Under the pieces are notes generated by a model. It did no database searches and was not told the DNA's origin. It saw only the letters and a program-made list of their open reading frames with translations. Of a DNA stretch of 39,061 bases, positions 7,957 through 38,441 are shown one piece after another. The DNA lies in assembly GCA_034420575.1 (NCBI GenBank), contig DAOULE010000116.1, positions 1 through 39,061 of the forward strand, given 5' to 3'. This DNA comes from Dehalococcoidia bacterium (GTDB lineage Bacteria; Chloroflexota; Dehalococcoidia; UBA2979). The translations under genes were made by a program, and so were the position numbers. Position 1 is the first letter of the stretch; every line of letters starts with the position of its first letter.

Positions 7957-9897
7957 ATGACTCCAGCCGCTGCCTCCGCGCCGGACTGGGACCTGGAGCA
8001 ACTGGAAGTCATCCTCGATGACCCCGCGAGTTGGCAGTTCGTCGTGGCCGGCCCTGGGGCTGGGAAGTCTGCCGTCGCGTGCCAGCGCATCGCCTATCTG
8101 ATTGACGAGGGGGTGCAGCCGTCGCGCATCTTGCTGATCAGCTTCACGCGGACGGCCGTGGCAGAACTGCGAGACCGGATCGTCGCGTATGCGGTGGCGG
8201 GTGAGCGGGCGCGCAGCGTGCGAATCTCGACGATTGACTCGCATGCATGGAGGCTTCGCGTTGGGTTTGAAGATGAGGCGCTGGCGGATCCCCTCGAAGG
8301 TGAGTCGGCTTTCGATCTGAGCATCTCCCGAACGGTCACGCTGTTTCGTGAGAAGGACCCGAGCCTGCTCGACTTCATGTCGCGCGTCGAGCATCTGATC
8401 ATTGATGAAGCGCAGGACGTCGTCGGTGTGCGCGCCGACCTCATGATCGAGATTCTGCTCGCCCTCTCGGATGAATGCGGTGTGACGATCCTGGCCGACC
8501 CGGCTCAGGCGATCTATGGGTTCACAGACGACCAGGACGAGGCGGCGGACTCGGGGAATCTGCTCCTTGAACGCCTCCCGACCGAGAGTCCGCGCAGCTT
8601 CGTCGAGAGGCAGCTGAATGAGATTCACCGCATACAGAACGACAGCCTCGTTGACTTGTTCCGCCGCTCGCGCCAGACGATAGAGCAGCCCGATGGACAC
8701 GAGACCCACGTCGATCGCGTGATCTCCGTCATCCGCGACAACTCTCAGGAGGACCTCGGAGCCACCACGTATGAGAAGGTCGCTGACCTTGTCTCGGACT
8801 CTGAGAGCGACTCTCTGCTGGTTCTCTTCCGCCGACGCTCAGAAGTGCTGACGGCCTCATCCTACTGTTCCAGTTCAGGAGTCCAGCACCGTCTGCGGCT
8901 GTCGGGTCTGCCACCTGTGATTCAGCCATGGATTGGCTGGCTCTTCGCCGAGTACAACGGGGCAACCATCTCGAAGGCAGAGTTCGAGGAGCTCTGGGCG
9001 AGGCGCTCGAGCATCGCAGCCGCCCCACTTGAGGGAGGGCGCCCAGACGGTGCCTGGGCGCTGCTCCACCACCTGGCGGCTGGTGCCGCCGAGGGCACCG
9101 TTGACCTGCACCATCTGCGCAGCCTCCTGTCTCGGTCGCGGCCTCCAGTCGAGGTCTGCCTTCCCGATCCAGGGCTCGGTACGCCAATTCTCGGAACGAT
9201 CCATGCTTCGAAAGGGCGCGAGGCAGAGACTGTTGCCCTGGTCTTGCCTACCACGGCAAACGGATTCGATTCAGACTCAGAAGCCGAGGTTCTTGAGGAA
9301 GGCCGCGTCTACTACGTGGGAGCCACACGAGCGAGAGATGCGCTCCTGACCGCCAACAGCAGCAGCGTGTGGGCCAGCCAACTCGACTCCGGGAGGGTCT
9401 TCAGGAAGCTCCGGAGCGCCGGTCGCAGGCCGCCGCGGGCACAGCTGGAGATTGGGCGCGACGGCGATGTTGACCGCACCGCCCATCTGGGATGGTCCAG
9501 TGGCGTTGAGGTCCAGGCGGTGCTGGCAGAAGCCTCGCGCGACATGCTGTCCGTGCGAGCCGAGAGCCGCGCGGAGGAAGGCTACGACTGGAGGCTGGTG
9601 CTCCAGGTGCCGTCTGGCGCGGGCTCAGCCAGGCGCGTTGAAATAGGGCAGATGAGCAAGGTGTTCCGCTCCGAGATCAGCGCGCTGTGGAGCAGACTGG
9701 ACACTGACAGCACGCTCAAGCCGGGGCACTACATCGAGAACCTCTACCTGTTTGGCGTCACGACGGTGGCACTGACCGAGAGTGAGCGCGACGCCGTGCG
9801 CCAGCCATTCAAGGACAGCGGGTTTGCCCTGGCCCCAGTCGTGAAGGGGTTCCCCGTGGTGCAGTTTCTCTATCGGGGTCGGAGGAGTCAGTGGTAG
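7957..9897 (+). CDS. SF1 UvrD/Rep-like helicase with an uncharacterised C-terminal domain of about 170 aa
   Basis: Walker A VVAGPGAGKSAV, LLISFTRTAVAEL, Walker B/motif II HLIIDEAQDV, C-terminal motifs GTIHASKGREAETVALV and VYYVGATRARDAL. The last roughly 170 aa have no motif I recognise. The stop overlaps the drmA start by 7 nt. Confidence 0.8.
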   Translation: MTPAAASAPDWDLEQLEVILDDPASWQFVVAGPGAGKSAVACQRIAYLIDEGVQPSRILLISFTRTAVAELRDRIVAYAVAGERARSVRISTIDSHAWRLRVGFEDEALADPLEGESAFDLSISRTVTLFREKDPSLLDFMSRVEHLIIDEAQDVVGVRADLMIEILLALSDECGVTILADPAQAIYGFTDDQDEAADSGNLLLERLPTESPRSFVERQLNEIHRIQNDSLVDLFRRSRQTIEQPDGHETHVDRVISVIRDNSQEDLGATTYEKVADLVSDSESDSLLVLFRRRSEVLTASSYCSSSGVQHRLRLSGLPPVIQPWIGWLFAEYNGATISKAEFEELWARRSSIAAAPLEGGRPDGAWALLHHLAAGAAEGTVDLHHLRSLLSRSRPPVEVCLPDPGLGTPILGTIHASKGREAETVALVLPTTANGFDSDSEAEVLEEGRVYYVGATRARDALLTANSSSVWASQLDSGRVFRKLRSAGRRPPRAQLEIGRDGDVDRTAHLGWSSGVEVQAVLAEASRDMLSVRAESRAEEGYDWRLVLQVPSGAGSARRVEIGQMSKVFRSEISALWSRLDTDSTLKPGHYIENLYLFGVTTVALTESERDAVRQPFKDSGFALAPVVKGFPVVQFLYRGRRSQW

Positions 9898-12800
9898 CCC
9901 AGGACCTCTTCCGAGACACCATTCTCGAACGGCTCCGCGAGGACCTTCTGGGGCCGTCGGATGCGCAGGAGGTCATTGCCGACAGGCCGACACAGCGCTA
10001 CAGCACTGGCATCCTCTATCCGCTGGACAGCTATGTTCAGGATGAGGAGGATCAGGACTCCGCCCTCGCGGTCAACGAGAAAGAGGACACGGCTTCGGAG
10101 CCGGACACGAGCGGTGTCCCTCTGCACGCTGCGCTGAAGCCCTCCACGGCTGGGCTTTCATTTGCGGTCGCGCCCGCAGGCGACGGGCGGGCCGCTGCTG
10201 TGGTCTTTGAGATCCGATGCGCGACCTACGAAAGATTCACGGTTGACGAGGACGGCCGGGAGACAGCGGACCCAACCTCAAGCCGCTCCCAGGAACGCTG
10301 GCGGCGAGCCCCGCATGATGCCTCGGTGGCCGTCGAGCTGGTCCCGGGAGAGTTCAGGCAGGACCTGAACTCGGACGGGATGGATGACCTCGAGCTGTAC
10401 GTGCTTGTGTCCCCTCACGCGGGCCTGCTCACCGTCACCGCTGCGCTCTCAAACAAGCGCAGGCGCGGAGACTCACGGGTCTTCGACGAGGCGCAGCATT
10501 TCTTCCAGGTCGAGCTGTCTGCCTCGACCGTGACAGACGGGGAGTTCGCGCCACGCCCGTCCAGGCGCGCGGAGACCGACGACGACAGCCGGAGCGCGGC
10601 GCTCATCTATCGTGACGCCGTTGAGTACGTCGTGGGCCATGGCTGCTCAGCCAGGGCGGTGTTCGCGGGCGATGGCAGTGGGGCACTCCGCGAACTGAAG
10701 ACGGAGTGGATCCCCTCTGTGACGGTCCCCGCCACCAGCGATCAGGGGGATGAGGTCTTCCAAGCGCTGCGCGAAGGCGACGCCTCCCGGCCTCTCGACG
10801 CGGCATGGCTCGCTGAAGCGAGCGAGGCGCACCTGGTGCAGGGGCTCGAGCGGCTCGTGACGGCCTACAGGGAGTGGGTCAGTCGGGAGGAAGGACGCGT
10901 AGACGGGCTGCCAGTGACGATGCGCCCCCAGGCCGGCAAGCACCTCGAGCGGTGCAGGCACGGGGCGGATCGCATGGCCGAGGGCGTCAACGCCATCCGC
11001 GCCGATGCTGAGATCCGCTCGGCCTTCCAGCTGTCGCAAAAGGCCATGAGCCTCCAGTTCGGCTGGCAGCGCGAAGGGGAGAAGCTGGTCTGGCGCCCGT
11101 TCCAGCTCGGCTTTCAGCTTCTCGTGCTCACGTCGCTGGCCGCCCGGGAGCACCCCGGCCGGGAGATCATGGATCTCCTCTGGTTCCCCACGGGCGGAGG
11201 GAAGACAGAGGCCTACCTGGCGCTGACGGCCTTCGCGATCCTGCTGCGTCGGCTGCGGTCCACCGAGGAGGACGACGGCGCCGGCGTTGCCGTTCTGATG
11301 CGCTACACCCTGCGGCTCTTGACCGTCCAGCAGTTCCAGCGTGCGGCCGCGATGATCCTCGCCTGCGAACTGCTGCGGCGGCAGTCACTGGAAACTGGGT
11401 CGGAGACTCCTGACCTGGGCGACGCTCCCATAGGGATCGGCCTCTGGGTTGGCTCCGCCGCGACGCCGAACACCCTCCGGGAAGCTCGGGACCAGAGCGG
11501 GGACTCCCCCAGCACGCATCGCCAGATCGTCGCGTGTCCCGCGTGCGGGGAGACGCTCAAATGGAGCCTCTCCCGATCTGAGTCATCTGTGAGCTGCGAG
11601 TCCGAACCGGGCGTGTGCGAGTTCGCCGGCGTCGCCAGCCTGCCAATCTGGACGATTGACGAGGAGATCTACCGGCACTCTCCGGCCCTCGTGATCGGCA
11701 CGATCGACAAGTTCGCTCAGATCGTCAGGAACATGAGCACCAGGGCGCTCTTCGGGGGGCTCGCGAGCCATGCTCCCCCTGACCTCATCATTCAGGACGA
11801 GCTCCACCTCATCTCCGGGCCTCTCGGTTCGATCGCCGGGCTCTACGAGGTGGCGATCGACGAGCTCTGCCGGCAAGGCGCCGTTCGTCCGAAGATCATC
11901 GGCTCCACGGCGACGATTCGCAGAGCGGAAGACCAGATACAGGCGCTGTTCGACCGGGTGACCTACCAGTTCCCTTCGCCCGGCCTCGACGCAGGCAACT
12001 CCGGCTTCGCGGTGGTTGACGAGGGGCACCCCGGCCGGCTGTACGTCGGCCTGACAACCGCCGGCCGTTCGGCCACCTACATGCTCCAGGCCCTGGCAGC
12101 CTCGCTGCTGCAGGCCGCAGACGAGCCCGGCGCCTCGCCCGAAGAGAGAGACCTGTACTGGACCCTGGTCGTCTATTTCAACTCGCTGCGCGAGCTCGGG
12201 CACGCGCTCCTGCTGATGCAAGACGACGTTCCGGTCTCGATCGGCCAGCTGGGCGCCCGCCGGGGTGAGCAGCCCAGGGAGGTCGGTCCCCCGGCAGAGC
12301 TGACCAGCCGTGTGCGCTCGTACGAGATACGGGACATGCTGGCCCGGCTGGAGACAAGCGCCGGTGCCCCAGGGGCTGTCGATCTCCTGCTCGCATCCAA
12401 CATGATCTCGGTGGGCATGGATGTCTCCCGGCTTGGGCTGATGGTCGTGAACGCCCAGCCCAAGACCCTGTCGGAGTACATCCAGGCGACGAGTCGGGTG
12501 GGGAGGGGCAGCGTTCCCGGGATCATCATCACCATGTACAACAACATGCGCGCCAGGGACCGGTCGCACTACGAGACCTTCGAGACGTGGCACCGCTCTC
12601 TCTATCGGGATGTGGAAGCCACGAGCGTCACGCCCTTCGCGTCGCGGGCGCAGGACAAGGCCATCCATGCGGTCCTCGTTGCCCTGGCGCGGCACCGAGT
12701 TCCCGGAATGGCCGACCGGCCCATCCTCGACGACCTTCGGCGCCCGCAGGTCGAGCAGGCCGCCGCGCTCATTGAGGCGCGCGTCGCACGCGTCGATCCG

Positions 12801-13070
12801 AGCGAGCGCCTCGTGGTCTCCAAGAAGCTCAAGCTCCTCATAGACGAGTGGGCCGGCCGCCCTGACCTCCAGACCTACTGGGACGACTATCAGAAGAAGA
12901 CCAGCCTCCTCCTGTCGGCTGAGCAGTTCGCCGCCACGTTGGCTGGCGATGCCGACCTCGACGCGGGCGGAGCTCGGAGAGCCCTCTGGCCAACCCCGAA
13001 CTCCATGCGCGACGTCGAGCCGGGGACTCCATTCGTGCTCAGGCAAGCGCTGAAGGCCGGGGATAGCTAG
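9891..13070 (+). CDS. drmA: DISARM DrmA-like SF2 (DExH) helicase
   Basis: GTG start preceded by GGAGGAG. Motif I FPTGGGKTEAYL, motif II QDELHLISG, motif III GSTATI, motif V SNMISVGMDVSRL, motif VI QATSRVGR. Long N-terminal extension. Followed immediately by a DUF1998 gene. Confidence 0.85.
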   Translation: MVAQDLFRDTILERLREDLLGPSDAQEVIADRPTQRYSTGILYPLDSYVQDEEDQDSALAVNEKEDTASEPDTSGVPLHAALKPSTAGLSFAVAPAGDGRAAAVVFEIRCATYERFTVDEDGRETADPTSSRSQERWRRAPHDASVAVELVPGEFRQDLNSDGMDDLELYVLVSPHAGLLTVTAALSNKRRRGDSRVFDEAQHFFQVELSASTVTDGEFAPRPSRRAETDDDSRSAALIYRDAVEYVVGHGCSARAVFAGDGSGALRELKTEWIPSVTVPATSDQGDEVFQALREGDASRPLDAAWLAEASEAHLVQGLERLVTAYREWVSREEGRVDGLPVTMRPQAGKHLERCRHGADRMAEGVNAIRADAEIRSAFQLSQKAMSLQFGWQREGEKLVWRPFQLGFQLLVLTSLAAREHPGREIMDLLWFPTGGGKTEAYLALTAFAILLRRLRSTEEDDGAGVAVLMRYTLRLLTVQQFQRAAAMILACELLRRQSLETGSETPDLGDAPIGIGLWVGSAATPNTLREARDQSGDSPSTHRQIVACPACGETLKWSLSRSESSVSCESEPGVCEFAGVASLPIWTIDEEIYRHSPALVIGTIDKFAQIVRNMSTRALFGGLASHAPPDLIIQDELHLISGPLGSIAGLYEVAIDELCRQGAVRPKIIGSTATIRRAEDQIQALFDRVTYQFPSPGLDAGNSGFAVVDEGHPGRLYVGLTTAGRSATYMLQALAASLLQAADEPGASPEERDLYWTLVVYFNSLRELGHALLLMQDDVPVSIGQLGARRGEQPREVGPPAELTSRVRSYEIRDMLARLETSAGAPGAVDLLLASNMISVGMDVSRLGLMVVNAQPKTLSEYIQATSRVGRGSVPGIIITMYNNMRARDRSHYETFETWHRSLYRDVEATSVTPFASRAQDKAIHAVLVALARHRVPGMADRPILDDLRRPQVEQAAALIEARVARVDPSERLVVSKKLKLLIDEWAGRPDLQTYWDDYQKKTSLLLSAEQFAATLAGDADLDAGGARRALWPTPNSMRDVEPGTPFVLRQALKAGDS

Positions 13071-14897
13071 ATGCAGAACGAGCTGGGCGACGTGAGGCGA
13101 AGCCAGGTCATCACATCCCACGGTCCCGGCTCGATCATTGACTTTCGGGCTGGCGGGCATGGCGGCGCGGGCGTCTCCGTGGTTGGGGCAGGGCTGGAGG
13201 AGTGGGACCGCTGGGCGCAGCCGCCCGGACTGGCGAACCCTCAGACCATCTATGAGCCAAGGCTTCAGAACGCGCTCGGCGTGGACGGGTTTCGCCTGCC
13301 TCCGGTGTCGCCCCAGATCGCTCCCAACACCTACTCGCGTCGCACAGGACGGCTCGTCGGCGTGCGCTATCCGCGGTGGCTCCAGTGTCCGCGCTGCCAC
13401 CTGATTGGGGAGAGCAGGCGGTGGAGCGAGGATCCCGGAGACCCTGCCCTGTACTGCGCTCCCTGCTCTGACCGGGCAGGAGGGCGGAATCGAGTTCATG
13501 CAGTTCCAGTCCGCTTCATCGTGCTCTGCGAGAAGGGTCACCTGGACGAGTTCCCGTGGGACTGGTGGGTCAGGCACGATGAGGACTGCAAGCAGCGACG
13601 CGACCTGAGGCTGTCGGGGAGTTCCGCGGCCGGTCTCGCCGGCCTGGTCCTCACCTGCGAGCGATGCGGAGCTGCGAGGTCGATGGAGGGCTGCTTCGGG
13701 CCAGACGCCATTCCGGGCAACTGCCAGGGGCGGCGACCGTGGCTGGGCACCGACGCTGACGAGCAATGCTCCGAGCAGCCGCGAGTTGTGCAGCGCGGGG
13801 CATCGAACATCTACTTCTCGGTGGTTGAGTCGGCTCTCGACATTCCACCGTGGTCGGATGAGCTGCAGAAGAGGATCGGGATGCGCTGGGCCATGCTGGA
13901 GCGGGCGGCGGACACGGCCGCGCGGCTCGTGCTGATTGACGCGCTCGGGCTCCCTGAGAGCCTCGGCATGCCAGCCGACGAGTTGGCATCGGTCATAGAG
14001 GATCGTGTCAGCCGGCTCAGGTCCCCTGGGCGCAACCTTCGCTTCGAGGAATATCAGCAGTTCGTCCAGCACTCCGAGCCATTCGGCGAGAACACCGAGT
14101 TCGAGGTCCGCCCGTTGGCTCCGCCGCCAGAGCTGGCGGGATGGCTGGAGATGGTGGTGCGCGCGACGCGACTCCGCGAGGTGAAAGCCAATGTTGGCTT
14201 CACGCGCATCGTTCCGCCGACGCCTGGCGACAACGAGAGGGTGGCTCCCATCTCCTTGGAGCGCCTGAACTGGCTGCCTGCGGTCGAGAATCGGGGTGAG
14301 GGGGTGTTCCTGCAGCTCAAGCCCGAACGGGTGCGGGAGTGGGAGCAGCGACCAGCCGTGCAAGAGAGGGTCGCTGGCCTGCAGGAGGCCTACGGGCGGT
14401 GGTGGCAGCAGCGCGGCATGGACGGTGATCCACCGAGGCCTCTCACCGCGAGGCTGCTGCTTGTGCACAGCCTGGCGCATGCTCTCATCCGCCAACTCGC
14501 ACTCAGCTGCGGCTACGGTAGCGCATCCCTCCGGGAGCGCATCTACGTCGACTCCGGCGAGTGGGAGATGGCCGGCCTGCTGGTGTTCACCTCATCACCG
14601 GATGCCGACGGCACGCTCGGAGGGCTGGCGAGGCAAGCTGAGGCGCGGAACCTCGTTCCCCTCTTCGAGGACTGCCTGGCAGGGATGGCGTGGTGCTCAT
14701 CCGACCCGCTGTGCTCTCAGGGGGTTCACGCCAGCACCGCAGCCTCCAACGGCGCTGCGTGCCATGCGTGCATGCTCGCCTCCGAGACATCGTGCGAGGA
14801 GTTCAACGCGTGTCTCGATCGAGTCATGCTGGTCGGGACGGTAGAGCACCCTGAAATGGGGTATTTCTCAGACTACCTGAGTGCCACGCGGGAATAG
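13071..14897 (+). CDS. drmB: DISARM DrmB-like DUF1998 protein
   Basis: ATG directly after the drmA stop. Zn-ribbon-like CPRCH...CAPC, then CEKGHLDEFPWDWW, and a C-terminal Cys cluster CSSDPLC...CHACMLASETSCEEFNACLDR characteristic of DUF1998. Confidence 0.85.
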   Translation: MQNELGDVRRSQVITSHGPGSIIDFRAGGHGGAGVSVVGAGLEEWDRWAQPPGLANPQTIYEPRLQNALGVDGFRLPPVSPQIAPNTYSRRTGRLVGVRYPRWLQCPRCHLIGESRRWSEDPGDPALYCAPCSDRAGGRNRVHAVPVRFIVLCEKGHLDEFPWDWWVRHDEDCKQRRDLRLSGSSAAGLAGLVLTCERCGAARSMEGCFGPDAIPGNCQGRRPWLGTDADEQCSEQPRVVQRGASNIYFSVVESALDIPPWSDELQKRIGMRWAMLERAADTAARLVLIDALGLPESLGMPADELASVIEDRVSRLRSPGRNLRFEEYQQFVQHSEPFGENTEFEVRPLAPPPELAGWLEMVVRATRLREVKANVGFTRIVPPTPGDNERVAPISLERLNWLPAVENRGEGVFLQLKPERVREWEQRPAVQERVAGLQEAYGRWWQQRGMDGDPPRPLTARLLLVHSLAHALIRQLALSCGYGSASLRERIYVDSGEWEMAGLLVFTSSPDADGTLGGLARQAEARNLVPLFEDCLAGMAWCSSDPLCSQGVHASTAASNGAACHACMLASETSCEEFNACLDRVMLVGTVEHPEMGYFSDYLSATRE

Positions 14898-15609
14898 TCT
14901 CTTGGGGACTGCGCGGGATCTCGTCGAGCTCGAGAGAGCCCTCAGGGCCGAAGGGGCGTTTGACCCGTTCGCCCCTGCGGGGCATGGCGGCCTTGGAGAG
15001 TCCCCCGCCGCTGCATCGCTGATAGAGCACCTCGGCAGGGTCAACTTCTCTGATCCAGAGCGGACGCTGAGGCTGTGCCTGCAGGCCCTGAGCGTTCAGC
15101 GCGAAGAGCTCACCACCAGCGCCTCAGAAGCCGAACTGGTCGCCACGCTCCCTCCGGGGCTGCCAGGGCTGGCGAGGACGACAGCTCAGGTCGTGTCTGA
15201 GATGCTGCGCCCCCCGCTTGGGGAGGTGATCCTGCTGGGCTACGAGTTGACTGACCCGAGCACAATGAACCTCTTGGTGCAGGCTGAAGCCGCAGGTGCG
15301 GATGTGATCGCGATCTGCGACCGGACACGCGGCGCCGCGGAGCGGGTCCTCGAGCTGGGCCTCCACCGAGCGAGGGTCTTTCAGGATCGTGAGCGGCCAG
15401 ACGGACCCCCGTACGCCTCCATGCACGCGAAGTGCCTCTTGGTCGACGGGCGGGATCTGCTCGTCACGTCCGCCAACTTCACGTTTCACGGGCTTCACGG
15501 GAACATCGAGGTCGGTGTGAGGTTGTCTGGAGCCCCGGCCGCCGAGGCTCGCCACATCTTCTCGCATCTGGTGGAGAAGCGGATCGTGGAAGAGGTTGGA
15601 GCTTCTTGA
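14881..15609 (+). CDS. drmC: DISARM DrmC-like phospholipase-D-family (single HKD) nuclease
   Basis: HKD motif HAKCLLVDGRDLLVTSANFT. Overlaps the drmB 3' end by 17 nt. The start (GTG 14881) is uncertain. Confidence 0.8.
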   Translation: MPRGNSLLGTARDLVELERALRAEGAFDPFAPAGHGGLGESPAAASLIEHLGRVNFSDPERTLRLCLQALSVQREELTTSASEAELVATLPPGLPGLARTTAQVVSEMLRPPLGEVILLGYELTDPSTMNLLVQAEAAGADVIAICDRTRGAAERVLELGLHRARVFQDRERPDGPPYASMHAKCLLVDGRDLLVTSANFTFHGLHGNIEVGVRLSGAPAAEARHIFSHLVEKRIVEEVGAS

Positions 15610-15623
15610 GGCACCCGTCGCCT

Positions 15624-15648
15624 CCCGACCCTGGTGCCGAGGGTCGGG
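15624..15648. terminator. Hairpin between the convergent drmC and C5-methyltransferase genes
   Basis: Perfect 9-bp stem cccgaccct / agggtcggg with a 7-nt loop, in the 84-bp gap between two convergent stops. No clear U-tract. Confidence 0.4.
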
Positions 15649-15693
15649 GAGCCGAGCGCCTGTAGCAGAGAGGGTCGCGCCCGGCCGTCTCCG

Positions 15694-17058
15694 TCACAGC
15701 GGGAGGGGCTGCTGTCCTGCCCCCCCTTCAGGCACCGAGGACGGGGACTCGCCTTCGCTCAGCAGTCTCCTCGCAATCTCATGCACCACGTCGACGTGAA
15801 CCGCGTTGCCCAGGGCCTTGAATGTCGCGTCCCGCGAGGCTGGAACATGGAAGTCTGACGGGAAGCCCTGCAAGCGAAGTCCCTCAGCCCGGGACAGGTG
15901 TCGGCGCTCGGGGCCGAGGATGGGAATCTGGGTGCTGGTCATCGCGACCAGAGAAGGGCTGTTCGCGTATCTCTTCACCCGCAAGCCCGAGGGCCGGAAT
16001 TGGAGGATGTGCCGCCACAGGTCTCGCTCCTCGCCTTGACAGTTCCACTCCAGCTTCCGAAGAGAGGGAGGGAAGGCCTTCAGGTCGCTGACCCACCCGG
16101 CAGGAAGCCGATCGTGAACTGTCGAGAGCCAGGCGCGGTTCTTCCTGATGAACTGCACCTTCCACTGAGGAAACTCCACGGCCTCGGTCCGCGCATAGCG
16201 GGGCAGAAGGTTGAACTCTTCCCAGAGGTCCGCCCTTCCGTTGCTCGACGGGGCGAACCCAACCTCCTGAGCCCGCGCCTCAGCCCAGGGCGTCATCTCT
16301 TCGTAGGGGTAGTTCGCATCGAACTCATCACCCCAGATCGGAAACGAGGGCAGCGTAACCTGGCCCTCCGGCAGTGCCCTGAGGAATGCGTTCCAGTGCT
16401 CGATGCAGCGCTCGTGCTGCTCGCCGATCGCCGTCTCGTCGCGGTCCCGGTCAGACAGCTCATCCTGCCGCTGGACCACTTGAGCCATCGAGGTCGCAGC
16501 CTTCCTGTCCCTTGGAGGAAACGGGCTCGCTGGGAGGTCCGCGAGCGAGGCGACCGCGAAGAATCGTTCCCTGTGGTGAGGGTGTCCGAGGTGGTGGGGG
16601 GAGAGAAGACCGTCGCCGCCACTGGTGACATGCAGAGTCCCGTGAACGTGGTACTCGAGGTCTTCCAGGCTCTCCTTGACTACCGACCACGTCCGTCCTT
16701 GGTCGTGGCGCTCGAAGTTCCCGACATTCTCCAGGATCACGACGCTGGGACTGTGCTTCTCGATGACCTCTCGGATCTCGTGAAAGAGAGTCCCGATCGT
16801 CTGGTCCTTCAGGCCGGCCTGAGCGCCGGACTTGGAGAACGGCTGGCACGGAAAGCCGGCGCAGAGCACATCGTGCGGAGGGACCTGGTCCTTCACGAGT
16901 CTGATGTCGCCTTGGACCTCCGGCCCGTCAGGGAAGTTCTTGCTGTAGACCTCTTGGAGTTGGCTGTCGATCTCCGAGGCAAAGACGCACTCGTGCCCAA
17001 GACGCTCGAGTGCCAGGCGGAAGCCGCCGAGGCCAGCGAAGAGGTCGATGAACCTCAT
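15694..17058 (-). CDS. DNA (cytosine-5)-methyltransferase (DrmMII-like)
   Basis: Motif I IDLFAGLGGF, motif IV GFPCQPFS, motif VI ILENV, RERFF, QGFPSDF, motif X LGNAVHVDV. Confidence 0.9.
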   Translation of the reverse strand: MRFIDLFAGLGGFRLALERLGHECVFASEIDSQLQEVYSKNFPDGPEVQGDIRLVKDQVPPHDVLCAGFPCQPFSKSGAQAGLKDQTIGTLFHEIREVIEKHSPSVVILENVGNFERHDQGRTWSVVKESLEDLEYHVHGTLHVTSGGDGLLSPHHLGHPHHRERFFAVASLADLPASPFPPRDRKAATSMAQVVQRQDELSDRDRDETAIGEQHERCIEHWNAFLRALPEGQVTLPSFPIWGDEFDANYPYEEMTPWAEARAQEVGFAPSSNGRADLWEEFNLLPRYARTEAVEFPQWKVQFIRKNRAWLSTVHDRLPAGWVSDLKAFPPSLRKLEWNCQGEERDLWRHILQFRPSGLRVKRYANSPSLVAMTSTQIPILGPERRHLSRAEGLRLQGFPSDFHVPASRDATFKALGNAVHVDVVHEIARRLLSEGESPSSVPEGGAGQQPLPL

Positions 17059-17256: not shown

Positions 17257-17517
17257 CTACTGTGCGTCCGCCGAGTCGAGTTGCGCCCCCGTCTGGCGCA
17301 GAACCGTGATGGTGCGGTGACCGTCGTCGCCGTCCTCAGTCTCTGCCCAAAAGTCGTCCAAGGAGCGATAGAAGGAGATTGTCTCGTTCCCGAGCACCAG
17401 TGTTGTGCCGTCATCGAGTTCGAGGATGTCGAGTTCTACTCCCCCGCCGGAGTTCCATGTGTCTACATTGCGGAGGTGCGCTGCGCGATCGGTGCTATCC
17501 ATGTGGTGAGTGTACAC
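17257..17517 (-). CDS. Small acidic hypothetical protein (81-86 aa) between the two methyltransferase genes
   Basis: ORF co-directional with both MTase genes. Start is GTG 17517 or ATG 17502. No recognisable motif. Confidence 0.4.
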   Translation of the reverse strand: MYTHHMDSTDRAAHLRNVDTWNSGGGVELDILELDDGTTLVLGNETISFYRSLDDFWAETEDGDDGHRTITVLRQTGAQLDSADAQ

Positions 17518-17572
17518 CCCGACACTTCCAGCGCCGCGCGGGGCCGCTCGGCCCTACCGTCAGCACGGAGCG

Positions 17573-19291
17573 TCAACTCACGGCGGACGTCCGAGGATCG
17601 ATCTCTCGCTCGCTCGCACGTATATGCTCCGTGATGGTTCGCAGGTCCAGTGCACCGAGGTCCCACCCTTCTCGGAATCCCCGTCGGAGCATCTCGAGGT
17701 AGAGGTGGCTGGGCGTGACGCCCGGTTCCATCAGGAGTTCGTCGACGGCCGCGGAGATTTCAGAGTCGCGCGGTACTACATGGTGCGTACGGGCTTCACC
17801 TGGCTTCATCGTGAGCACGAGATCGAGTGTTGCGACATTCTCGAACCCCGAGGCTAGGCCCTTTACTGACCGCTGCCCCTTGTCGAGCACGGCCGTGTGT
17901 TCCGGAACGACTTGAAGGCCAGCGTCGCGGATCGCCCGTTGCACGAGCTGCCACATGGCACCAGCGCTATTGCCAAAGATCATCGAGATGCAGCCTGCAT
18001 CCTTCAGCACCCTCTTGCACTCCGCGAGTGCCTCAGTCAGGAGTTGCTCGTAGCGGGCGGCCGATCGGTGCGAGTCGGTCTGGACGCGATCGACCACGGC
18101 CTCTGCAGCAGGGTCCGTCGTAGAGCCGAGCCATGCTTCGTGAAAGAGGTTCATGTCCGAGTAGAAGATGTTCGATCCGAACGGGGGGTCGGTGAAGATG
18201 TAGTCGACCGAGTTGTCAGGCAGCGGCAGTTCCGCAGCGCTGGCGAGGTCGTACGTCACATCGCCGGCGCTGCCGTTCCGGAATAGCGGACCGCCCTCCC
18301 GGTGGGCCCGAATCCAGTCATCGGACCGAATGACTGCCTCCACCTTGCGGGAGAACAGGTCGAGCACGTTCCACTCATAGAACACCGGGGCCACGTAGTA
18401 GTTCGCGTTGGCGGCGTTGAGAGGCCGCTTCCTGGACCACTGGTAGCGCTTGCTGGCCCTCGTGAGGATCGCTGTGAACGCGAAGAGCAGCTTCTGCCTG
18501 ATGGCCTCATCCGTGGTCTCGTCGATCGCGGACTTGAGAGCCCCAAGGACCAACAGATTGCGTCGAGAGAAGAATCGTGCGGTCGAAGTCAGCCCGTGGC
18601 GACCGAGCGCCGATGCGATGAACATCTGCCGCGCCTTGTCGATCTCGAGATCAGGCCAATCGATATCGGTCGCAGAGAGACCCACGGTCGGCTCGGACCA
18701 AGCCTGCTCCAGTTGCTTGTCGCTGCATGAGCATCTGATCCAGTCAACCACGGGTTCTTCGTTGAGCTTCCGAGATCTGCTCGTCACCAGCCCTTTGCAG
18801 TCCGGGCATCTCATCTCGCGCTTGTCCCACTCGGCGGATTCGAGCGAGCGGTAGAAGTTGACGGAGCGCCTGCAGGTGGCGCATTGGACCGTCGAACTCC
18901 ACACGGTCTTCGCAAGCTCGCCGGTAGACCCGCACGCGCCGCACTCGACCGCGTAGACATTGCCCAGGCGGTCATGAGTGGAGCGGACGACGCTGGCGGC
19001 TGCTTCCCGAAGCTGGTCAGGTTCGACCAGATTCACGTAGTTCGCCCCGATGTGCCTGCCCAGAACCGAGACATCGAAGAGTCTCGCGTTCCGTCCAAGC
19101 AGTGTCGCGGCGACGCCTGTCATCCCGGATCCGGCGAAAGGATCGGCGACGGTGTCACCCGGCGAGGAGAAGGCCTCAATGAAGGGTAGAATCGCCGGGA
19201 GCGGCACCTTCGTGAGGTAGGCGTGCGCCATGTATACGGGGTCGCTACGCTTCGCCTTGATGGTTTCTGGAAGCAGCCTCGGGTCACCCAT
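17573..19291 (-). CDS. Amino (N6-adenine or N4-cytosine) DNA methyltransferase with Zn-ribbon-containing insert
   Basis: Motif I region HAYLTKVPLP...GDTVADPFAGSGMTGVAA lies at the N-terminus. Motif IV DYIFTDPPFGSNIFY lies about 300 aa later. Between them are Cys pairs (CGACGS...CATCRRS and CPDCKG). Confidence 0.85.
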   Translation of the reverse strand: MGDPRLLPETIKAKRSDPVYMAHAYLTKVPLPAILPFIEAFSSPGDTVADPFAGSGMTGVAATLLGRNARLFDVSVLGRHIGANYVNLVEPDQLREAAASVVRSTHDRLGNVYAVECGACGSTGELAKTVWSSTVQCATCRRSVNFYRSLESAEWDKREMRCPDCKGLVTSRSRKLNEEPVVDWIRCSCSDKQLEQAWSEPTVGLSATDIDWPDLEIDKARQMFIASALGRHGLTSTARFFSRRNLLVLGALKSAIDETTDEAIRQKLLFAFTAILTRASKRYQWSRKRPLNAANANYYVAPVFYEWNVLDLFSRKVEAVIRSDDWIRAHREGGPLFRNGSAGDVTYDLASAAELPLPDNSVDYIFTDPPFGSNIFYSDMNLFHEAWLGSTTDPAAEAVVDRVQTDSHRSAARYEQLLTEALAECKRVLKDAGCISMIFGNSAGAMWQLVQRAIRDAGLQVVPEHTAVLDKGQRSVKGLASGFENVATLDLVLTMKPGEARTHHVVPRDSEISAAVDELLMEPGVTPSHLYLEMLRRGFREGWDLGALDLRTITEHIRASEREIDPRTSAVS

Positions 19292-19319
19292 GATGGCATC
19301 TTACCAGTTGACTCATCGT

Positions 19320-19340
19320 CTGTAGACTCGAAGTCTACAG
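19320..19340. promoter_or_regulatory. 21-bp perfect palindrome (C-box-like operator) in a divergent promoter region
   Basis: ctgtagact-cga-agtctacag, containing GACT-N3-AGTC. It lies in the 67-bp gap between the MTase start (19291) and the XRE gene start (19359). Confidence 0.65.
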
Positions 19341-19358
19341 GATTCCTACCGTTGTCGC

Positions 19359-19601
19359 GTGATGACGGCACCACGCTCGGCGACAGCAACGCAAGGGCGT
19401 GCCGCCTTCGGACGTCGCGTGCGCTCGCTCCGCGAAGCTGCGGGACTCTCCCAGGAAGCCCTTGCGGAGCAGTCAGGTCTGCACCGGACGTACATCAGCA
19501 GCCTGGAGCGTGGCCGCCGTAATGTCGGACTCGACAACATCCTCCGGCTTGCGGCGGCGCTTGGTGTTGAACCCGGCGAGTTGCTGGAGTCCTGGTCCTA
19601 A
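19359..19601 (+). CDS. XRE-family HTH protein resembling an R-M controller (C) protein
   Basis: 80 aa. HTH LSQEALAEQSGLHRTYISSLERGRRNVGLDNILRLAAALGV resembles C-proteins. The stop TAA overlaps the ATG of the next gene by 1 nt. Confidence 0.8.
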   Translation: MMTAPRSATATQGRAAFGRRVRSLREAAGLSQEALAEQSGLHRTYISSLERGRRNVGLDNILRLAAALGVEPGELLESWS

Positions 19602-21091
19602 TGGGATTCAAGGAGGACGCTGACTTCGCGCGCTTCCTCTCGATGGGCGCGATCGGCACTGCCGCGGTCGCTGAGCATCTCGGTTCCGACCTTGGGCACG
19701 CACCGGTTGAGCTTGAACGCTACGCGATGGCGAACAAGGTCTGGCAAACGAAGGTCAAGCGGTTTCGGCTGCCGGACCTCGTCTGCACTCGCTGTGGTGT
19801 CCGCGTCGAGTCACGCGCGAAGTCGGCTCTGTCCCTGGTCCTGTCTCACTCTGACACTCCGGGACGCGAGTGGGACGGTGGCGGCATGCGGGATCACGAC
19901 CTCTTCGCGTTCATCCGGGTCGAACTCGGTTCGTCGGATCCGCGCGTAGGGGTGCCGGCCTACTTCGAGACCTTCGCCCTGCGCCAAACCGTCGAGCTTG
20001 CACGGCGCAGCGCACCGAAGGCGGCATCGGAAGGCTCTGAGGTGACCTTGAAGTGGCCCAGCTGGGTACCAGGGCGCAGTGGCCGAGTGACGGGAATCGA
20101 CACGGATGGTCGTGTCGTCTGTCAGTGGGACAACGGCCGTACGTACCGGTACGGGCAATGGAGGAAGTGGGGAGGGGATGGAAACCTGTACGTCACCGTG
20201 GGGGACCACTTCACTGGTGGAGGAACCTTCGTCGCTGGTGTTGTCGAGGAGCCTTCAACCCTGTCGTGCCCTGGGGAGACGTGGGATCTTGCTGCCTCAC
20301 TCCAGACTCTTGACGAGACGGAGCGCTACGCGGCGGTCAAGGTAGCCGGCCTGCTGGGCCGGAACGAACTGGCGGCCCTTATCGCCGCGCTTGCCCGGAG
20401 TGACGATTGGCGGCTGCGTCTCGAGGCATACGGCAGCCTTGCCCGACTGGAGCATGATCCCTGGACCGACCGGATTGCCGAGGTCGCTGCGGACGAAGAG
20501 GTCGAGCCTGAGCAGAGGATGGAGGCAGTGTTCCTGCTCAGCGAGATTCCTAATCCCGCGGCGACGACAGCACTGGGCGCGATCGCAAGGAACCATGGCC
20601 TTGGCAGCGAGGTACGCGCAGCGGCAGCGTGGGGCCTTGGGCAAGGCGCAGCGCCAAGAGTGGAATTGCTCCTCCCGCTCGTGTCGGATGACGACCCGCT
20701 CGTCGCGCTCCACGCGATCACGGCTATCGAGCAGATCACGGACGGTCAAGCGTCGAAACTAGTGGCGTTGCTCGGCGCCGAGCCCAGGGTTGCCACGGGT
20801 GCCGCAAGAGTCCTTCAGAGGCTGGGCCGCGTTGAGGAACTCCTGGATGCCTTCGAGACGGGCGGCACTCAGCGCCTGTGGGCATTGAGGGCATTGGGCG
20901 ATCTGCCGCCCGATGAGGTTCGGGCGCGCGCTGGTTCGCGCCTCACAGACGAACTCGTGGAGTTGCTTGCGCCGCTCTGGGCGGGGCAGAACGATTGGCT
21001 GCGGTCCGAGGACGGGAAGGCCGGGCTAGACTCGCTCGACGTCCAGAAGGTTCGGGCGAACCCGAGCGTCCCTTGGACCTCGAGCCGGTGA
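19601..21091 (+). CDS. 496-aa protein: PD-(D/E)xK-like N-terminal domain, beta-rich middle, HEAT/ARM-like repeat C-terminus (candidate effector or restriction nuclease)
   Basis: N-terminus has ELERY...RLPDLVCTRCGVRVESRAK (D59, E70-x-R/K). The C-terminal half has repeated helical units: ERYAAVKVAGLLG, WRLRLEAYGSLARL, EVRAAAAWGLGQG, PLVALHAITAI, RLWALRALGDL. Coupled to the upstream C-like gene. Confidence 0.7.
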   Translation: MGFKEDADFARFLSMGAIGTAAVAEHLGSDLGHAPVELERYAMANKVWQTKVKRFRLPDLVCTRCGVRVESRAKSALSLVLSHSDTPGREWDGGGMRDHDLFAFIRVELGSSDPRVGVPAYFETFALRQTVELARRSAPKAASEGSEVTLKWPSWVPGRSGRVTGIDTDGRVVCQWDNGRTYRYGQWRKWGGDGNLYVTVGDHFTGGGTFVAGVVEEPSTLSCPGETWDLAASLQTLDETERYAAVKVAGLLGRNELAALIAALARSDDWRLRLEAYGSLARLEHDPWTDRIAEVAADEEVEPEQRMEAVFLLSEIPNPAATTALGAIARNHGLGSEVRAAAAWGLGQGAAPRVELLLPLVSDDDPLVALHAITAIEQITDGQASKLVALLGAEPRVATGAARVLQRLGRVEELLDAFETGGTQRLWALRALGDLPPDEVRARAGSRLTDELVELLAPLWAGQNDWLRSEDGKAGLDSLDVQKVRANPSVPWTSSR

Positions 21092-21418
21092 GACGATTCA
21101 CCTCGCTGATGCCGCAAGCGAGTCTGGGCGCGTCGTCATCGAGGCCACGGCTACAGGCTGAACAACACCTCAAAGGTGGGTACCGCCTACCGTCGAGTTG
21201 GCCCCGCTGACAGCGAGACCGCCCACCTGAAAGTTCGCAGTACAGTCAGCGTGGGCCCACCAGCACGTACCCCACTCATGACTCGGCCGAGAGGGCCACG
21301 TCCGGCCGCGTCTCCGCCTCCGATGGGCTGCTCGCGCCTCGTCGGCGGCGATCTCCAGCCGCTGCTGAGGTGCGCGGAAGCGGCATAGCCCCGGACGCGG
21401 GCGCAGGCTCCGCCAGCA

Positions 21419-36559: not shown

Positions 36560-36664
36560 GGGGGGAGTGTCGCGCGGGTGGCGGGTGGGGGCAACGCGGC
36601 GCGCGATCGCTAGCGCGTGCCCCGAGTAACGTTTAGCGTACGCACCGGCGGCAGGTGGTGTGCG

Positions 36665-37855
36665 GTGTTGAAGTCGCTGACGATCAGGAGTTTCCGCAGC
36701 CTAGCCAACGTCGAACTGCGCTTTGAGCCACTTACCTTGCTGGTAGGCCCCAATGGATCTGGCAAGAGTAACGTGATTGATGCCCTTCGCTTCATCAAGG
36801 ACGCGCTCTCAACCAGCCTCGCCGTGGCGGTGAGCCAGCGCGGCGGCCTCCGCTCAGTCCGCCGCGTATCGCGTGGCCATCCCCGCCACTTTGGGTTCCG
36901 TCTTGTAATGGTCATTCGTGACCACGGACCACCACTCACCTCTGAATATTCGTTCGAGATCGGAACGGAACCGGGCGAAGGTGGGTTCAGCGTCCGTCAA
37001 GAGCGCTGCGTGATCCACCGCGGCGATGAATCAGCGCTGTCGTTCGAAACCCGCGATGGACTGTTCGTTGGAGGCTCCTTTGCAGAAACTCGCCTGCGCC
37101 AGCCTGATCAGCTTGCACTCCCGCTCGTTGCTAATGTTGCGCCAGAACCTGAGTTCTTCTACGTGCTCGAAGAACTGACGAGAATGCGCTTCTACAGCCC
37201 GATACCCGACCGCATACGGGAGCCCCAAGACCCCACCGAGGGGAATGTCCTTCTTCCTGACGGAAGCAACGCCGTGTCCGTTGTTCGTGAACTTCGTCGT
37301 CATCACAATGATGATTACACCTTGCTATGCGAGCTCTTGGCAAAGGTCGTCCCGGGAGTCGCCTATGTCACATCGAGAGCTGTCGGGAATAAGGAGACTC
37401 TCCAGTTTCACCAGCTCGTAGACGATAAAGGGAACCCGTGGAGATTCGACCCGGGGAATATGTCCGACGGAACGATCAGGGTCTTGGCGATTCTGCTCGC
37501 GATGTATCAGCCGGATCAGGCTTCGCTGATTGCGGTCGAGGAGCCTGAGTCGACGGTTCACCCGGCTGCCGCGGACGTCTTGGTGGATGTCCTTCGCGCA
37601 GGGAGCCGCAGAAGTCAGGTACTGGTGACCACGCACAGCCCGGACATTCTCGACAGCAATTCCATCGCGAGTGCCGAGATTCGAGTAGTTGAGAAGGTGG
37701 AAGGGCGCACCGAGGTCGGACCACTGGGCGCGAGAAGCCGCGAGGCGATCCGAGATCTTCTCTACCTCCCCGGAGAACTGCTACGGATGGACGAGCTAGA
37801 CCGCGCTGAGTTGGACGCCCCGCAACTGGAATTGTTCCCGAGGTCGAGGATCTAG
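36665..37855 (+). CDS. ABC/OLD-type (AAA_15/AAA_21-like) ATPase
   Basis: Probable GTG start giving [13 protein letters not shown]. Walker [10 protein letters not shown], Walker [15 protein letters not shown]-loop VTTHSPD. Lower-GC codons than the neighbouring genes. Confidence 0.8.
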
Positions 37856-37856
37856 A

Positions 37857-38441
37857 TTGTCCTGCTTGGCCTTGGTCGTCGAGGGCTACGGGGATGTGCA
37901 GGCCGCTCCGATACTTGCCAGGAGAATTCTAGCTGACATTGGAGCGCACCACGTCGTAGTGCCTTCGCCGGTGCGGCTGCACCGAGGGCGGTTCCTGAAG
38001 GGCGACCACGTTGGTCGTGCTGTTTCACTCGCCCTACAGAAGTGCGACGGCCCTAGGGGTGTCTTGATCCTGTTCGACTCTGACGGGCACTGCCCTGTCG
38101 AGCTGTCGAGCGAGTGCTCGGTCCTCATCGGAGAGAGGATCAACACACGCGTCGTGGTCGCTCATAACGAGTTCGAGGCATGGTTCGTAGCGGCTCTCGC
38201 ATCACTGCGCGGGCAACGAGGCGTCTCAGAGACCGCGCTCTTCGAAGGCAACCCTGACGAACTCGCCAACCCGAAGCGGGTGCTCGCGCAACACATGACG
38301 CCAGAGCGCGGTTACTCGGAAACCGTTGACCAGCCGGCATTTGCAGCAACTATGGACATCGAACTCGCGGCTGAACGGTCAAGGTCTTTCAGGAAGTTCC
38401 GCACGGACATCGAGTCTCTTGCGGCCTACGTCAGTTCGTGA
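37857..38441 (+). CDS. DUF4276-like (TOPRIM-like) protein
   Basis: TTG start 1 nt after the ATPase stop. LALVVEGYGD (Glu), LILFDSDG (DxD) and HNEFEAWFVAA match my recollection of DUF4276 and a TOPRIM-like acidic constellation. Confidence 0.65.
   Translation: MSCLALVVEGYGDVQAAPILARRILADIGAHHVVVPSPVRLHRGRFLKGDHVGRAVSLALQKCDGPRGVLILFDSDGHCPVELSSECSVLIGERINTRVVVAHNEFEAWFVAALASLRGQRGVSETALFEGNPDELANPKRVLAQHMTPERGYSETVDQPAFAATMDIELAAERSRSFRKFRTDIESLAAYVSS

Follow-up and report, generated by a model that had tools for sequence, protein, structure and literature searches.

The window analyzed here is a stretch of 39,061 nucleotides (nt) from a Dehalococcoidia bacterium (contig DAOULE010000116.1), and our subject is a cassette within it that comprises a DNA methyltransferase (MTase) gene, a divergent gene for a small controller (C) protein and, directly downstream of the latter, a gene for a protein of 496 amino acids (aa) with a nuclease-like N-terminal domain (N-domain) and HEAT repeats. 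With good confidence, we read the cassette as a Type II restriction-modification (R-M) system on the PvuII regulatory plan, with the 496-aa protein as its endonuclease and CAGCTG as the likely site. Judged from its sequence and genetic context, the 496-aa protein is probably the restriction endonuclease (R) of the system, and its family is probably a new family of Type II restriction endonucleases with an architecture for which we found no precedent. The original prediction, made from the letters of the window, saw an "R-M-like" module with an unusual effector; a bona fide Type II restriction endonuclease is most simply what such a gene would encode. Restriction enzymes are very diverse, and a new family alone is no surprise.

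A cassette on the PvuII regulatory plan

Our open reading frames (ORFs) agree in position with those predicted before, at 17573-19291 (-), 19359-19601 (+), and 19601-21091 (+). The features of the cassette are the following:

17567..21092, no strand: whole R-M cassette (M, C-box, C, R), with borders from nucleotide homology to locus L001
17573..19291, - strand: DNA amino-methyltransferase, 572 aa (Pfam N6_N4_Mtase, 7e-20, in two pieces; PADLOC MTase_II, 3e-90)
19310..19335, + strand: C-box operator, GACTCATCGTC (OL)-TGTA-GACTCGAAGTC (OR), read from the sequence; 24 of 26 positions equal the symmetrised PvuII operator
19359..19601, + strand: controller (C) gene, 80 aa, GTG start at 19359, alternative ATG at 19362 (PADLOC Control_protein, 2e-26)
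19599..19603, + strand: TAATG, the C stop codon overlapping the R start codon, read from the sequence
19601..21091, + strand: putative restriction endonuclease, 496 aa, founding member of a nuclease/SH3-like/HEAT family (homologue searches, structure model)

The closest relative, locus L001 in a Dehalococcoidia metagenome-assembled genome, is 86.6% identical to the window over 3527 bp (17567-21092). Homology ends exactly at the gene ends of the cassette and the flanks are unrelated; hence, these genes form a discrete 3.5-kb cassette, which the comparison of sequences marks as mobile and horizontally transferred. Integrases, an excisionase or a transposase adjoin some family members. Plasmid records contained no member of the family and only distant relatives of the MTase (35% identity or less).

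The arrangement had been described as an amino-MTase transcribed divergently from a small XRE/C-like gene that overlaps the effector gene by TAATG. The ORFs and the Pfam matches to N6_N4_Mtase and HTH_3 bear out the divergent pair, and the overlap is present: the last A of the C-gene TAA (19599-19601) is the first base of the effector ATG (19601-19603). The overlap by itself does not show translational coupling, which is unproven because the C and R genes of PvuII, though overlapping, are translated independently (PMC2997769). Scans of the cassette for consensus sigma-70 promoters and terminators gave no match. The absence of a consensus sigma-70 promoter is usual for C-R operons.

The controller arrangement is specifically of the PvuII type. 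The C protein matches Pfam HTH_3 (3e-18) and also HTH_31, has C.AhdI (2e-17) and C.BclI (5e-14) as its best solved relatives in the PDB, and carries the recognition helix HRTY, encoded at 19482-19493. Its C-box differs at only 2 of 26 positions from the symmetrised PvuII operator, GACTCATAGTCTGTAGACTCAAAGTC, and contains the TGTA spacer that accompanies HRTY-type C proteins (PMC2175313). The C-box ends 23 nt upstream of the GTG start of the C gene, and those related genome loci that possess a C gene have its motif conserved in front of that gene. Leaderless transcripts are common for C genes (PMC2632904), and the C gene of the window is probably leaderless too, given how close its start codon is to the operator. 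C genes lie directly upstream of the R gene, co-oriented and within +/-20 nt of its start (PMC2997769); that of the window is directly upstream, on the same strand, and overlaps the effector start, as is typical of C and R gene pairs. The MTase start codon is only 19 bp from the C-box (19291-19335), so the MTase promoter would have to share sequence with the operator or be located inside the C gene, and C binding could also modulate MTase transcription.

The MTase of the window has a permuted motif order, with motif I (ADPFAGSG, F52) N-terminal and motif IV (DPPF, aa 368-371) C-terminal, and a Cys-rich insert of about 300 aa between them. It is not a member of the M.PvuII family: it is 572 aa long, permuted, and has DPPF, as opposed to the beta-class, SPPF-containing N4-cytosine enzyme of about 320 aa, and M.PvuII (1BOO) was not among its PDB matches. 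DPPF as motif IV points toward N6-adenine methylation. On this view, the enzyme more likely produces N6-methyladenine (m6A) than N4-methylcytosine (m4C).

How would such a system work? We propose that the 572-aa MTase, transcribed leftward, methylates the host DNA, while the C protein would bind the pair of C-boxes that closely precedes its own gene, which is probably leaderless. Binding would first activate and later repress the C-R operon, and therefore the 496-aa protein would be made only after methylation is established. Its basic N-domain would then cut unmethylated DNA with a PD-(D/E)xK-type site (D59, E70, R/K72, K74), and the SH3-like barrel and the HEAT solenoid would supply recognition, clamping, dimerisation or regulation. 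With CAGCTG as the target, both enzymes would be nonhomologous analogues of those of PvuII, the 496-aa protein of R.PvuII and the 572-aa MTase of M.PvuII.

A nuclease-like head on a HEAT solenoid

The 496-aa protein matched no restriction-enzyme or defence model in PADLOC, NCBIfam, and Pfam, where HEAT_2 was the exception and NCBIfam gave a far sub-threshold match for the HEAT region only. This agrees with the earlier view that the effector is not a recognisable restriction enzyme, and the suggestion of an undescribed effector family has also held: the protein defines a coherent family of about 270 clusters without annotation. A word-indexed search returned more than 321 homologues of 489-551 aa, and phmmer with aa 1-145 of one query sequence against 1.84 billion representatives returned 271 clusters at 50% identity with an E-value (E) of 1e-3 or better. 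Such names as the homologues bear are "hypothetical" or "HEAT repeat domain-containing protein," and RefSeq does likewise for the members from cultured Streptomyces, Nonomuraea, and Corynebacterium. In the literature, searched without REBASE, neither a HEAT-repeat domain in a restriction enzyme nor any account of the family was found. The nuclease-like head appears to occur in a single architecture, because all full-length members in the exhaustive phmmer search are about 476-524 aa long and all 10 of the most distant members tested carry HEAT_2; among the 1.84 billion representatives, we found the N-domain in no other architecture, only in the form of about 490 aa and in fragments. Many short database "homologues" are fragments of disrupted genes.

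An AlphaFold2 model of the protein, built from a 45-sequence alignment (predicted local distance difference test [pLDDT] 86.7, predicted template modelling score [pTM] 0.83), divides it into four parts, of which the solenoid and the tail share the last line:

19601..20035, + strand: basic nuclease-like N-domain, alpha/beta, aa 1-145 (invariant columns, Foldseek, model)
20036..20284, + strand: beta-rich SH3/Tudor-like middle domain, aa 146-228 (DSSP strands, sub-threshold Pfam, Foldseek)
20285..21088, + strand: acidic HEAT solenoid, aa 229-465, and tail, aa 466-496 (Pfam HEAT_2, fold matches)

The original prediction noted a PD-(D/E)xK-like N-terminal region (LPD...VESRAK). The motif is real, and its region is the most conserved part of the family. 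It reads P58-D59-x10-E70-x-(R/K)72-x-K74; D59, E70, and K74 are invariant in 76 diverse sequences down to 28% overall identity, position 72 is R or K, and P58, E37, E39, C62, and R68 are nearly invariant in the same 76 members. The candidate catalytic residues are E37/E39, D59 (19775-19777), E70 (19808-19810), R72, and K74 (19820-19822). In the model, D59, E70, and K74 are predicted to lie on the beta2-beta3 hairpin (strands 60-62 and 68-74). Such a hairpin is the canonical position of the PD-(D/E)xK active site. The loop of aa 40-58 is basic, with a net charge of +6 in every member, and is highly conserved, with low model confidence; the median pI of the N-domain is 9.5.

The best PDB match in Foldseek of the N-domain modelled alone (pLDDT 84.8) was the Hjc resolvase (E 0.05, probability 0.90, target-normalised TM 0.47), followed by the DpnI endonuclease (probability 0.57), both of which are PD-(D/E)xK enzymes. 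These matches are weak, and the HH comparisons gave none: hhalign did not match the N-domain to an Hjc sequence. The protein does not belong to the R.PvuII family either, as it has no Pfam match and an hhalign probability of 0.25% against ten PvuII-family sequences. Because the sequence and profile routes failed, the nuclease assignment rests on the motif and the predicted fold, and because the fold statistics are weak and there is no link by sequence or profile, we treat a PD-(D/E)xK nuclease fold of the N-domain, with its alpha-beta-beta-beta-alpha-beta core, as probable, not established.

The N-domain also contains H33, C62, C65, and H83 (19697-19699, 19784-19795, 19847-19849). Among the closer relatives, H33 and C65 are invariant and H83 is at least 90% conserved. 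C62 is retained almost family-wide, H33 and C65 are jointly replaced in some distant members (such as P0175, P0176, and L066), and H83 is also lost in some. The four residues may form a C2H2 zinc site of structural function that only some members possess.

The beta-rich middle that had been noted before appears in the model at aa 146-228. It has sub-threshold Pfam matches to DUF4314 and SH3-C_UBE2O and partial Foldseek matches to a stretch of about 80 residues of RNA polymerase chain C and to eIF5A and Tudor barrels.

The C-terminal half was expected to hold about 240 aa of HEAT/ARM-like repeats, and it does: HEAT_2 matches with 1.1e-11 (45.3 bits versus a cut-off of 27.7), and the model has a solenoid of about 17 helices (aa 230-481) that matches alphaRep, in sequence and structure, as well as importin and PBS-lyase types. 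The C-terminal tail (aa 466-496) is conserved and modelled with low confidence. HEAT and ARM proteins dominated the Foldseek results of the whole protein, and all matches in a viral structure library were unnamed or uncharacterised. The HEAT domain has a net charge of -16 in the window protein and of -9 to -30 across the family; since it is so acidic, a simple DNA-binding role is not obvious. Its family-wide conserved residues include E275, E308, E337, R339, W344, and H371. Such conservation argues for a fixed partner, be it DNA, the nuclease head or a second subunit, rather than for a rapidly evolving sensor. A regulatory or gating role of the solenoid, by analogy with the HEAT sensor of DSR2, is possible.

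Methyltransferase linkage, probable target site, and gene decay

A collection with one genome per species yielded 58 loci, from Dehalococcoidia (the closest, with 66-85% identity), many sponge-associated Acidimicrobiia, and cultured Streptomyces, Nonomuraea, Corynebacterium, and Cryobacterium. Together with more distant members (28-45% identity) and 80 metagenome loci that form a second, independent set, the combined survey covers 149 loci from two public collections, including the window. An orthologue of the 572-aa MTase is adjacent and divergent in all 56 genome loci with upstream DNA, and when all flanking ORFs were clustered, only the HEAT-family and MTase genes were shared across the genome loci. 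An N6/N4 MTase is adjacent in 143 of the 143 assessable loci of the survey, the remaining 6 of 149 being cut off by a contig end less than 1 kb upstream. Chance alone would be very far from producing such a recurrent gene pair. Homologues unlinked to MTases, which would have spoken against an R-M module, are thus the opposite of what we found. The partner MTases are of three types:

126 of 149 loci: 572-aa type (including a 608-aa form), with orthologues 43-89% identical
16 of 149 loci: M.PvuII-type of about 320 aa
1 of 149 loci: another beta-class MTase

The gene orders are divergent, convergent, and both tandem arrangements. A linkage that survives the swap among three unrelated MTase types is the classical signature of a restriction endonuclease gene.

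The C gene was found in 88 of the 149 loci. It is missing from 38 of 56 genome loci, those of L004-L030 and related sponge-symbiont Acidimicrobiia. Here, a conserved intergenic region of about 100-190 bp takes the place of the C gene, and GTG is a frequent start codon of the R gene. The C-less loci show conserved synteny among 10-17 of them. The conserved intergenic region and the kept synteny suggest that these loci were inherited vertically after loss of the controller.

The M.PvuII-type partners point to CAGCTG, the site of PvuII, as the target. The three checked, among 16 loci, align end to end in the PDB with 1BOO (E 3e-129, 9e-124, and 2e-101) and carry the motif TSPPF, as 1BOO does. Five loci (L066, L111, L112, L135, and L145) have an M.PvuII-type MTase followed by C and R on the opposite strand; in layout, each is a PvuII system with pvuIIR replaced by a HEAT-family gene. 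In 15 of 149 loci there is also a true R.PvuII-family gene inside the module, one of which matches the PvuII structure sequences over its full length (E 1e-19). The HEAT-family and R.PvuII-family genes accompany a 572-aa MTase in L053, L107, L128, L134, and L138 and an M.PvuII-type MTase in L068, L121, L125, L129, L143, and L146. Where contigs permit the check, these dual loci hold a single MTase, that is, two unrelated endonucleases and one methylase. In L053, L107, L134, and L138, the sole MTase is of the 572-aa type, and it must therefore protect against the PvuII-family enzyme there. Both endonuclease genes are complete in L053 (from Cryobacterium breve), L107, L121, L134, L138, and L146; L125 has only a fragment of the PvuII-family gene, and a contig end cuts this gene or the module in L068, L128, and L143. 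The intact HEAT-family genes of the dual loci keep D59, E70, and K74.

On low-GC metagenome contigs (L059/L060 and L062/L063), two different deletions fuse a truncated HEAT-family gene to a truncated PvuII-family gene, at about HEAT-family residue 107 or 220, with an M.PvuII-like MTase alongside that is full length in L062. These fusions inactivate both endonucleases together. P0236, a 178-aa "homologue" with a Pfam match to PvuII, is such a deletion fusion of two truncated neighbours, and we rejected it as a sign of a PvuII-like N-domain.

Carrier DNA avoids the same site. Measured against a maximal-order Markov expectation, CAGCTG shows the strongest depletion of all 6-bp palindromes in the 58 genome loci and the window (observed/expected ratio [O/E] 0.53; by clade 0.63, 0.26, 0.33, and 0.58). 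In 85 independent metagenome loci, the O/E is 0.39 for high-GC (rank 1 of 58 palindromes) and 0.35 for low-GC sequences (rank 2 of 64), whereas a small control, 250 kb of GC-rich replicons that lack the family, gives 0.83 (rank 15 of 51). From the partner MTases, the coresident R.PvuII genes, and the site avoidance, we favour CAGCTG as the recognition sequence. Because the control is small and the depletion in the clade of the window is modest, we hold this assignment as likely but no more than that.

Of 56 genome loci, 8 (L017, L035, L037, L038, L041, L048, L049, and L057) have a HEAT-family gene broken by premature stops, frameshifts or a 1.6-kb insertion, and the longer MTase gene is broken in 0 of 55 (Fisher p = 0.006). 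This asymmetric decay is the pattern expected when a toxic endonuclease is lost and the methylase persists.

Could the two genes be an epigenetic or regulatory pair instead of a defence system, in which the HEAT protein is a noncatalytic DNA- or protein-binding modulator of the MTase? Such a role would accord with the weak fold match behind a nuclease function that is predicted only, and with the missing C protein in 38 of 56 genome loci. However, it would leave unexplained an invariant acidic/basic triad on a nuclease-like hairpin, a PvuII-type C control that is typical of toxic R genes, the linkage kept across swaps of three unrelated MTase types, the asymmetric pseudogenisation in a mobile cassette, and the avoidance of CAGCTG in carrier DNA. 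We consider this explanation very improbable.

Several points weigh against the 496-aa protein as the CAGCTG-specific endonuclease. The fold match of the N-domain is weak, coming from a predicted structure with an E of about 0.05 and a TM of 0.47, and a Pfam search with E up to 10 and a PDB profile search placed the N-domain in no known nuclease family. The strongly acidic HEAT domain is ill suited as a general DNA-binding surface. In the clade of the window, the depletion of CAGCTG is modest (O/E 0.63, rank 4 among the palindromes expected at least 8 times), and few control sequences were available for comparison. Finally, intact HEAT-family and intact R.PvuII-family genes occur under one MTase in about 10% of the loci. 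Why would a cell keep two enzymes if they are isospecific? One of them seems redundant.

The dual loci would make sense if the HEAT-family protein were an accessory or second-layer effector of a CAGCTG-type R-M system rather than its primary restriction enzyme. As a nuclease, it might become active only under certain conditions, with the HEAT solenoid as the sensor of a protein or of the state of DNA; alternatively, it might be a partner that processes DNA after the first cut. The HEAT gene is intact and keeps D59, E70, and K74 beside an R.PvuII-family gene with a single MTase (15 of 149 loci), the solenoid is acidic, and HEAT domains sense phage proteins in DSR2 (PMC11263360). However, about 90% of the loci, including the window, hold no other nuclease candidate, and the HEAT-family gene fills the R slot of a C-controlled operon and decays while the MTase persists. 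Moreover, its HEAT residues are conserved family-wide, unlike those of the usual diversifying sensors. We therefore regard a second-layer effector as improbable. In a related proposal, the acidic solenoid gates an Hjc-like head by autoinhibition, DNA mimicry or the sensing of a phage or host factor; we think such a conditional nuclease unlikely, although it would account for the retention of intact copies next to intact R.PvuII genes with a single methylase. If true, it would constitute a second, mechanistically distinct layer for CAGCTG-type R-M systems.

Neighbouring genes and known systems

A DISARM-like island (7957-17058) lies directly to the left of the cassette, and a candidate defence pair is found close to the right end of the window, where the GC content is lower:

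7957-9897: UvrD-like helicase of the DISARM-like island, at the position where DrmE or DrmD is expected
9891-13070: DrmA (PADLOC, 8e-205)
13071-14897: DrmB, DISARM-like island
14881-15609: DrmC/PLD, DISARM-like island
15694-17058, - strand: C5 cytosine MTase, DISARM-like island
17257-17517, - strand: 86-aa ORF between the C5 MTase and the cassette, outside the conserved cassette
36617-38441: HEC-01A/HEC-01B candidate defence pair

The cassette abuts the DISARM-like genes in the window and might extend that island and work with DrmABC. However, the homology to the nearest relative stops exactly at the cassette borders, and DISARM genes occur within 8 kb of the cassette in 0 of the 58 genome loci. 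We rejected the cassette as a part of DISARM, since drmA, drmB, and drmC co-occur with it only in the window, and a joint function is extremely improbable. For the 86-aa ORF, searches of Pfam, PADLOC, and NCBIfam gave no match; it may not be a gene, or it may be what is left of the insertion site. The HEC-01A candidate is an AAA_21/AAA_15 ATPase of 412 aa (PADLOC, 6e-122), and that for HEC-01B has 194 aa (7e-58).

Our analysis would add a sizeable family, now labelled only "HEAT repeat domain-containing protein," to the repertoire of restriction enzymes, and both this family and the 572-aa MTase merit inclusion in annotation models for R-M and defence systems. For the carriers, among them cultured Streptomyces, Nonomuraea, Corynebacterium, and Cryobacterium, we predict restriction of DNA with unmethylated CAGCTG, which bears on their genetic tractability. 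Examples of carrier strains are Streptomyces megasporus NRRL B-16372 (species member WP_031508698.1) and Cryobacterium breve TMT4-23. In the dual loci, two unrelated endonucleases would sometimes share one methylase. A DNA-bound structure would reveal the part of the HEAT solenoid in site-specific cleavage.

The closest comparison is with PvuII itself. The cassette shares with it the divergent M and C-R layout, the HRTY C protein, the overlap of C and R, a nearly identical pair of C-boxes with the TGTA spacer and, probably, the recognition sequence. In contrast, its putative endonuclease of 496 aa has no detectable homology to R.PvuII, is three times the size of that enzyme, and carries SH3-like and HEAT domains, and its MTase is a permuted DPPF enzyme of 572 aa instead of the SPPF m4C enzyme M.PvuII of about 320 aa. 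In evolution, it seems, the regulatory scaffold of C.PvuII and C-boxes and apparently also the target were kept while both enzymes were swapped for unrelated analogues.

Among known structures, the predicted N-domain, with a D...E-x-K-type motif on a beta hairpin, comes closest, though weakly, to the minimal PD-(D/E)xK nucleases, namely the archaeal Hjc resolvase and the catalytic domain of DpnI. However, it lacks similarity to them in sequence or profile, has a conserved loop in place of the usual helix after the third strand and a conserved basic loop of 19 residues before the PD, and is fused to a beta-barrel and a HEAT solenoid. Like DSR2 and AbiK/Abi-P2, the 496-aa protein would combine an enzymatic head with a HEAT-type solenoid in the context of immunity or DNA transactions. 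AlkC and AlkD are DNA glycosylases with HEAT-like repeats. However, all these proteins have a Sir2, polymerase or glycosylase domain as their head, and an MTase accompanies none of them, whereas here the head is nuclease-like and the system appears to be based on methylation.

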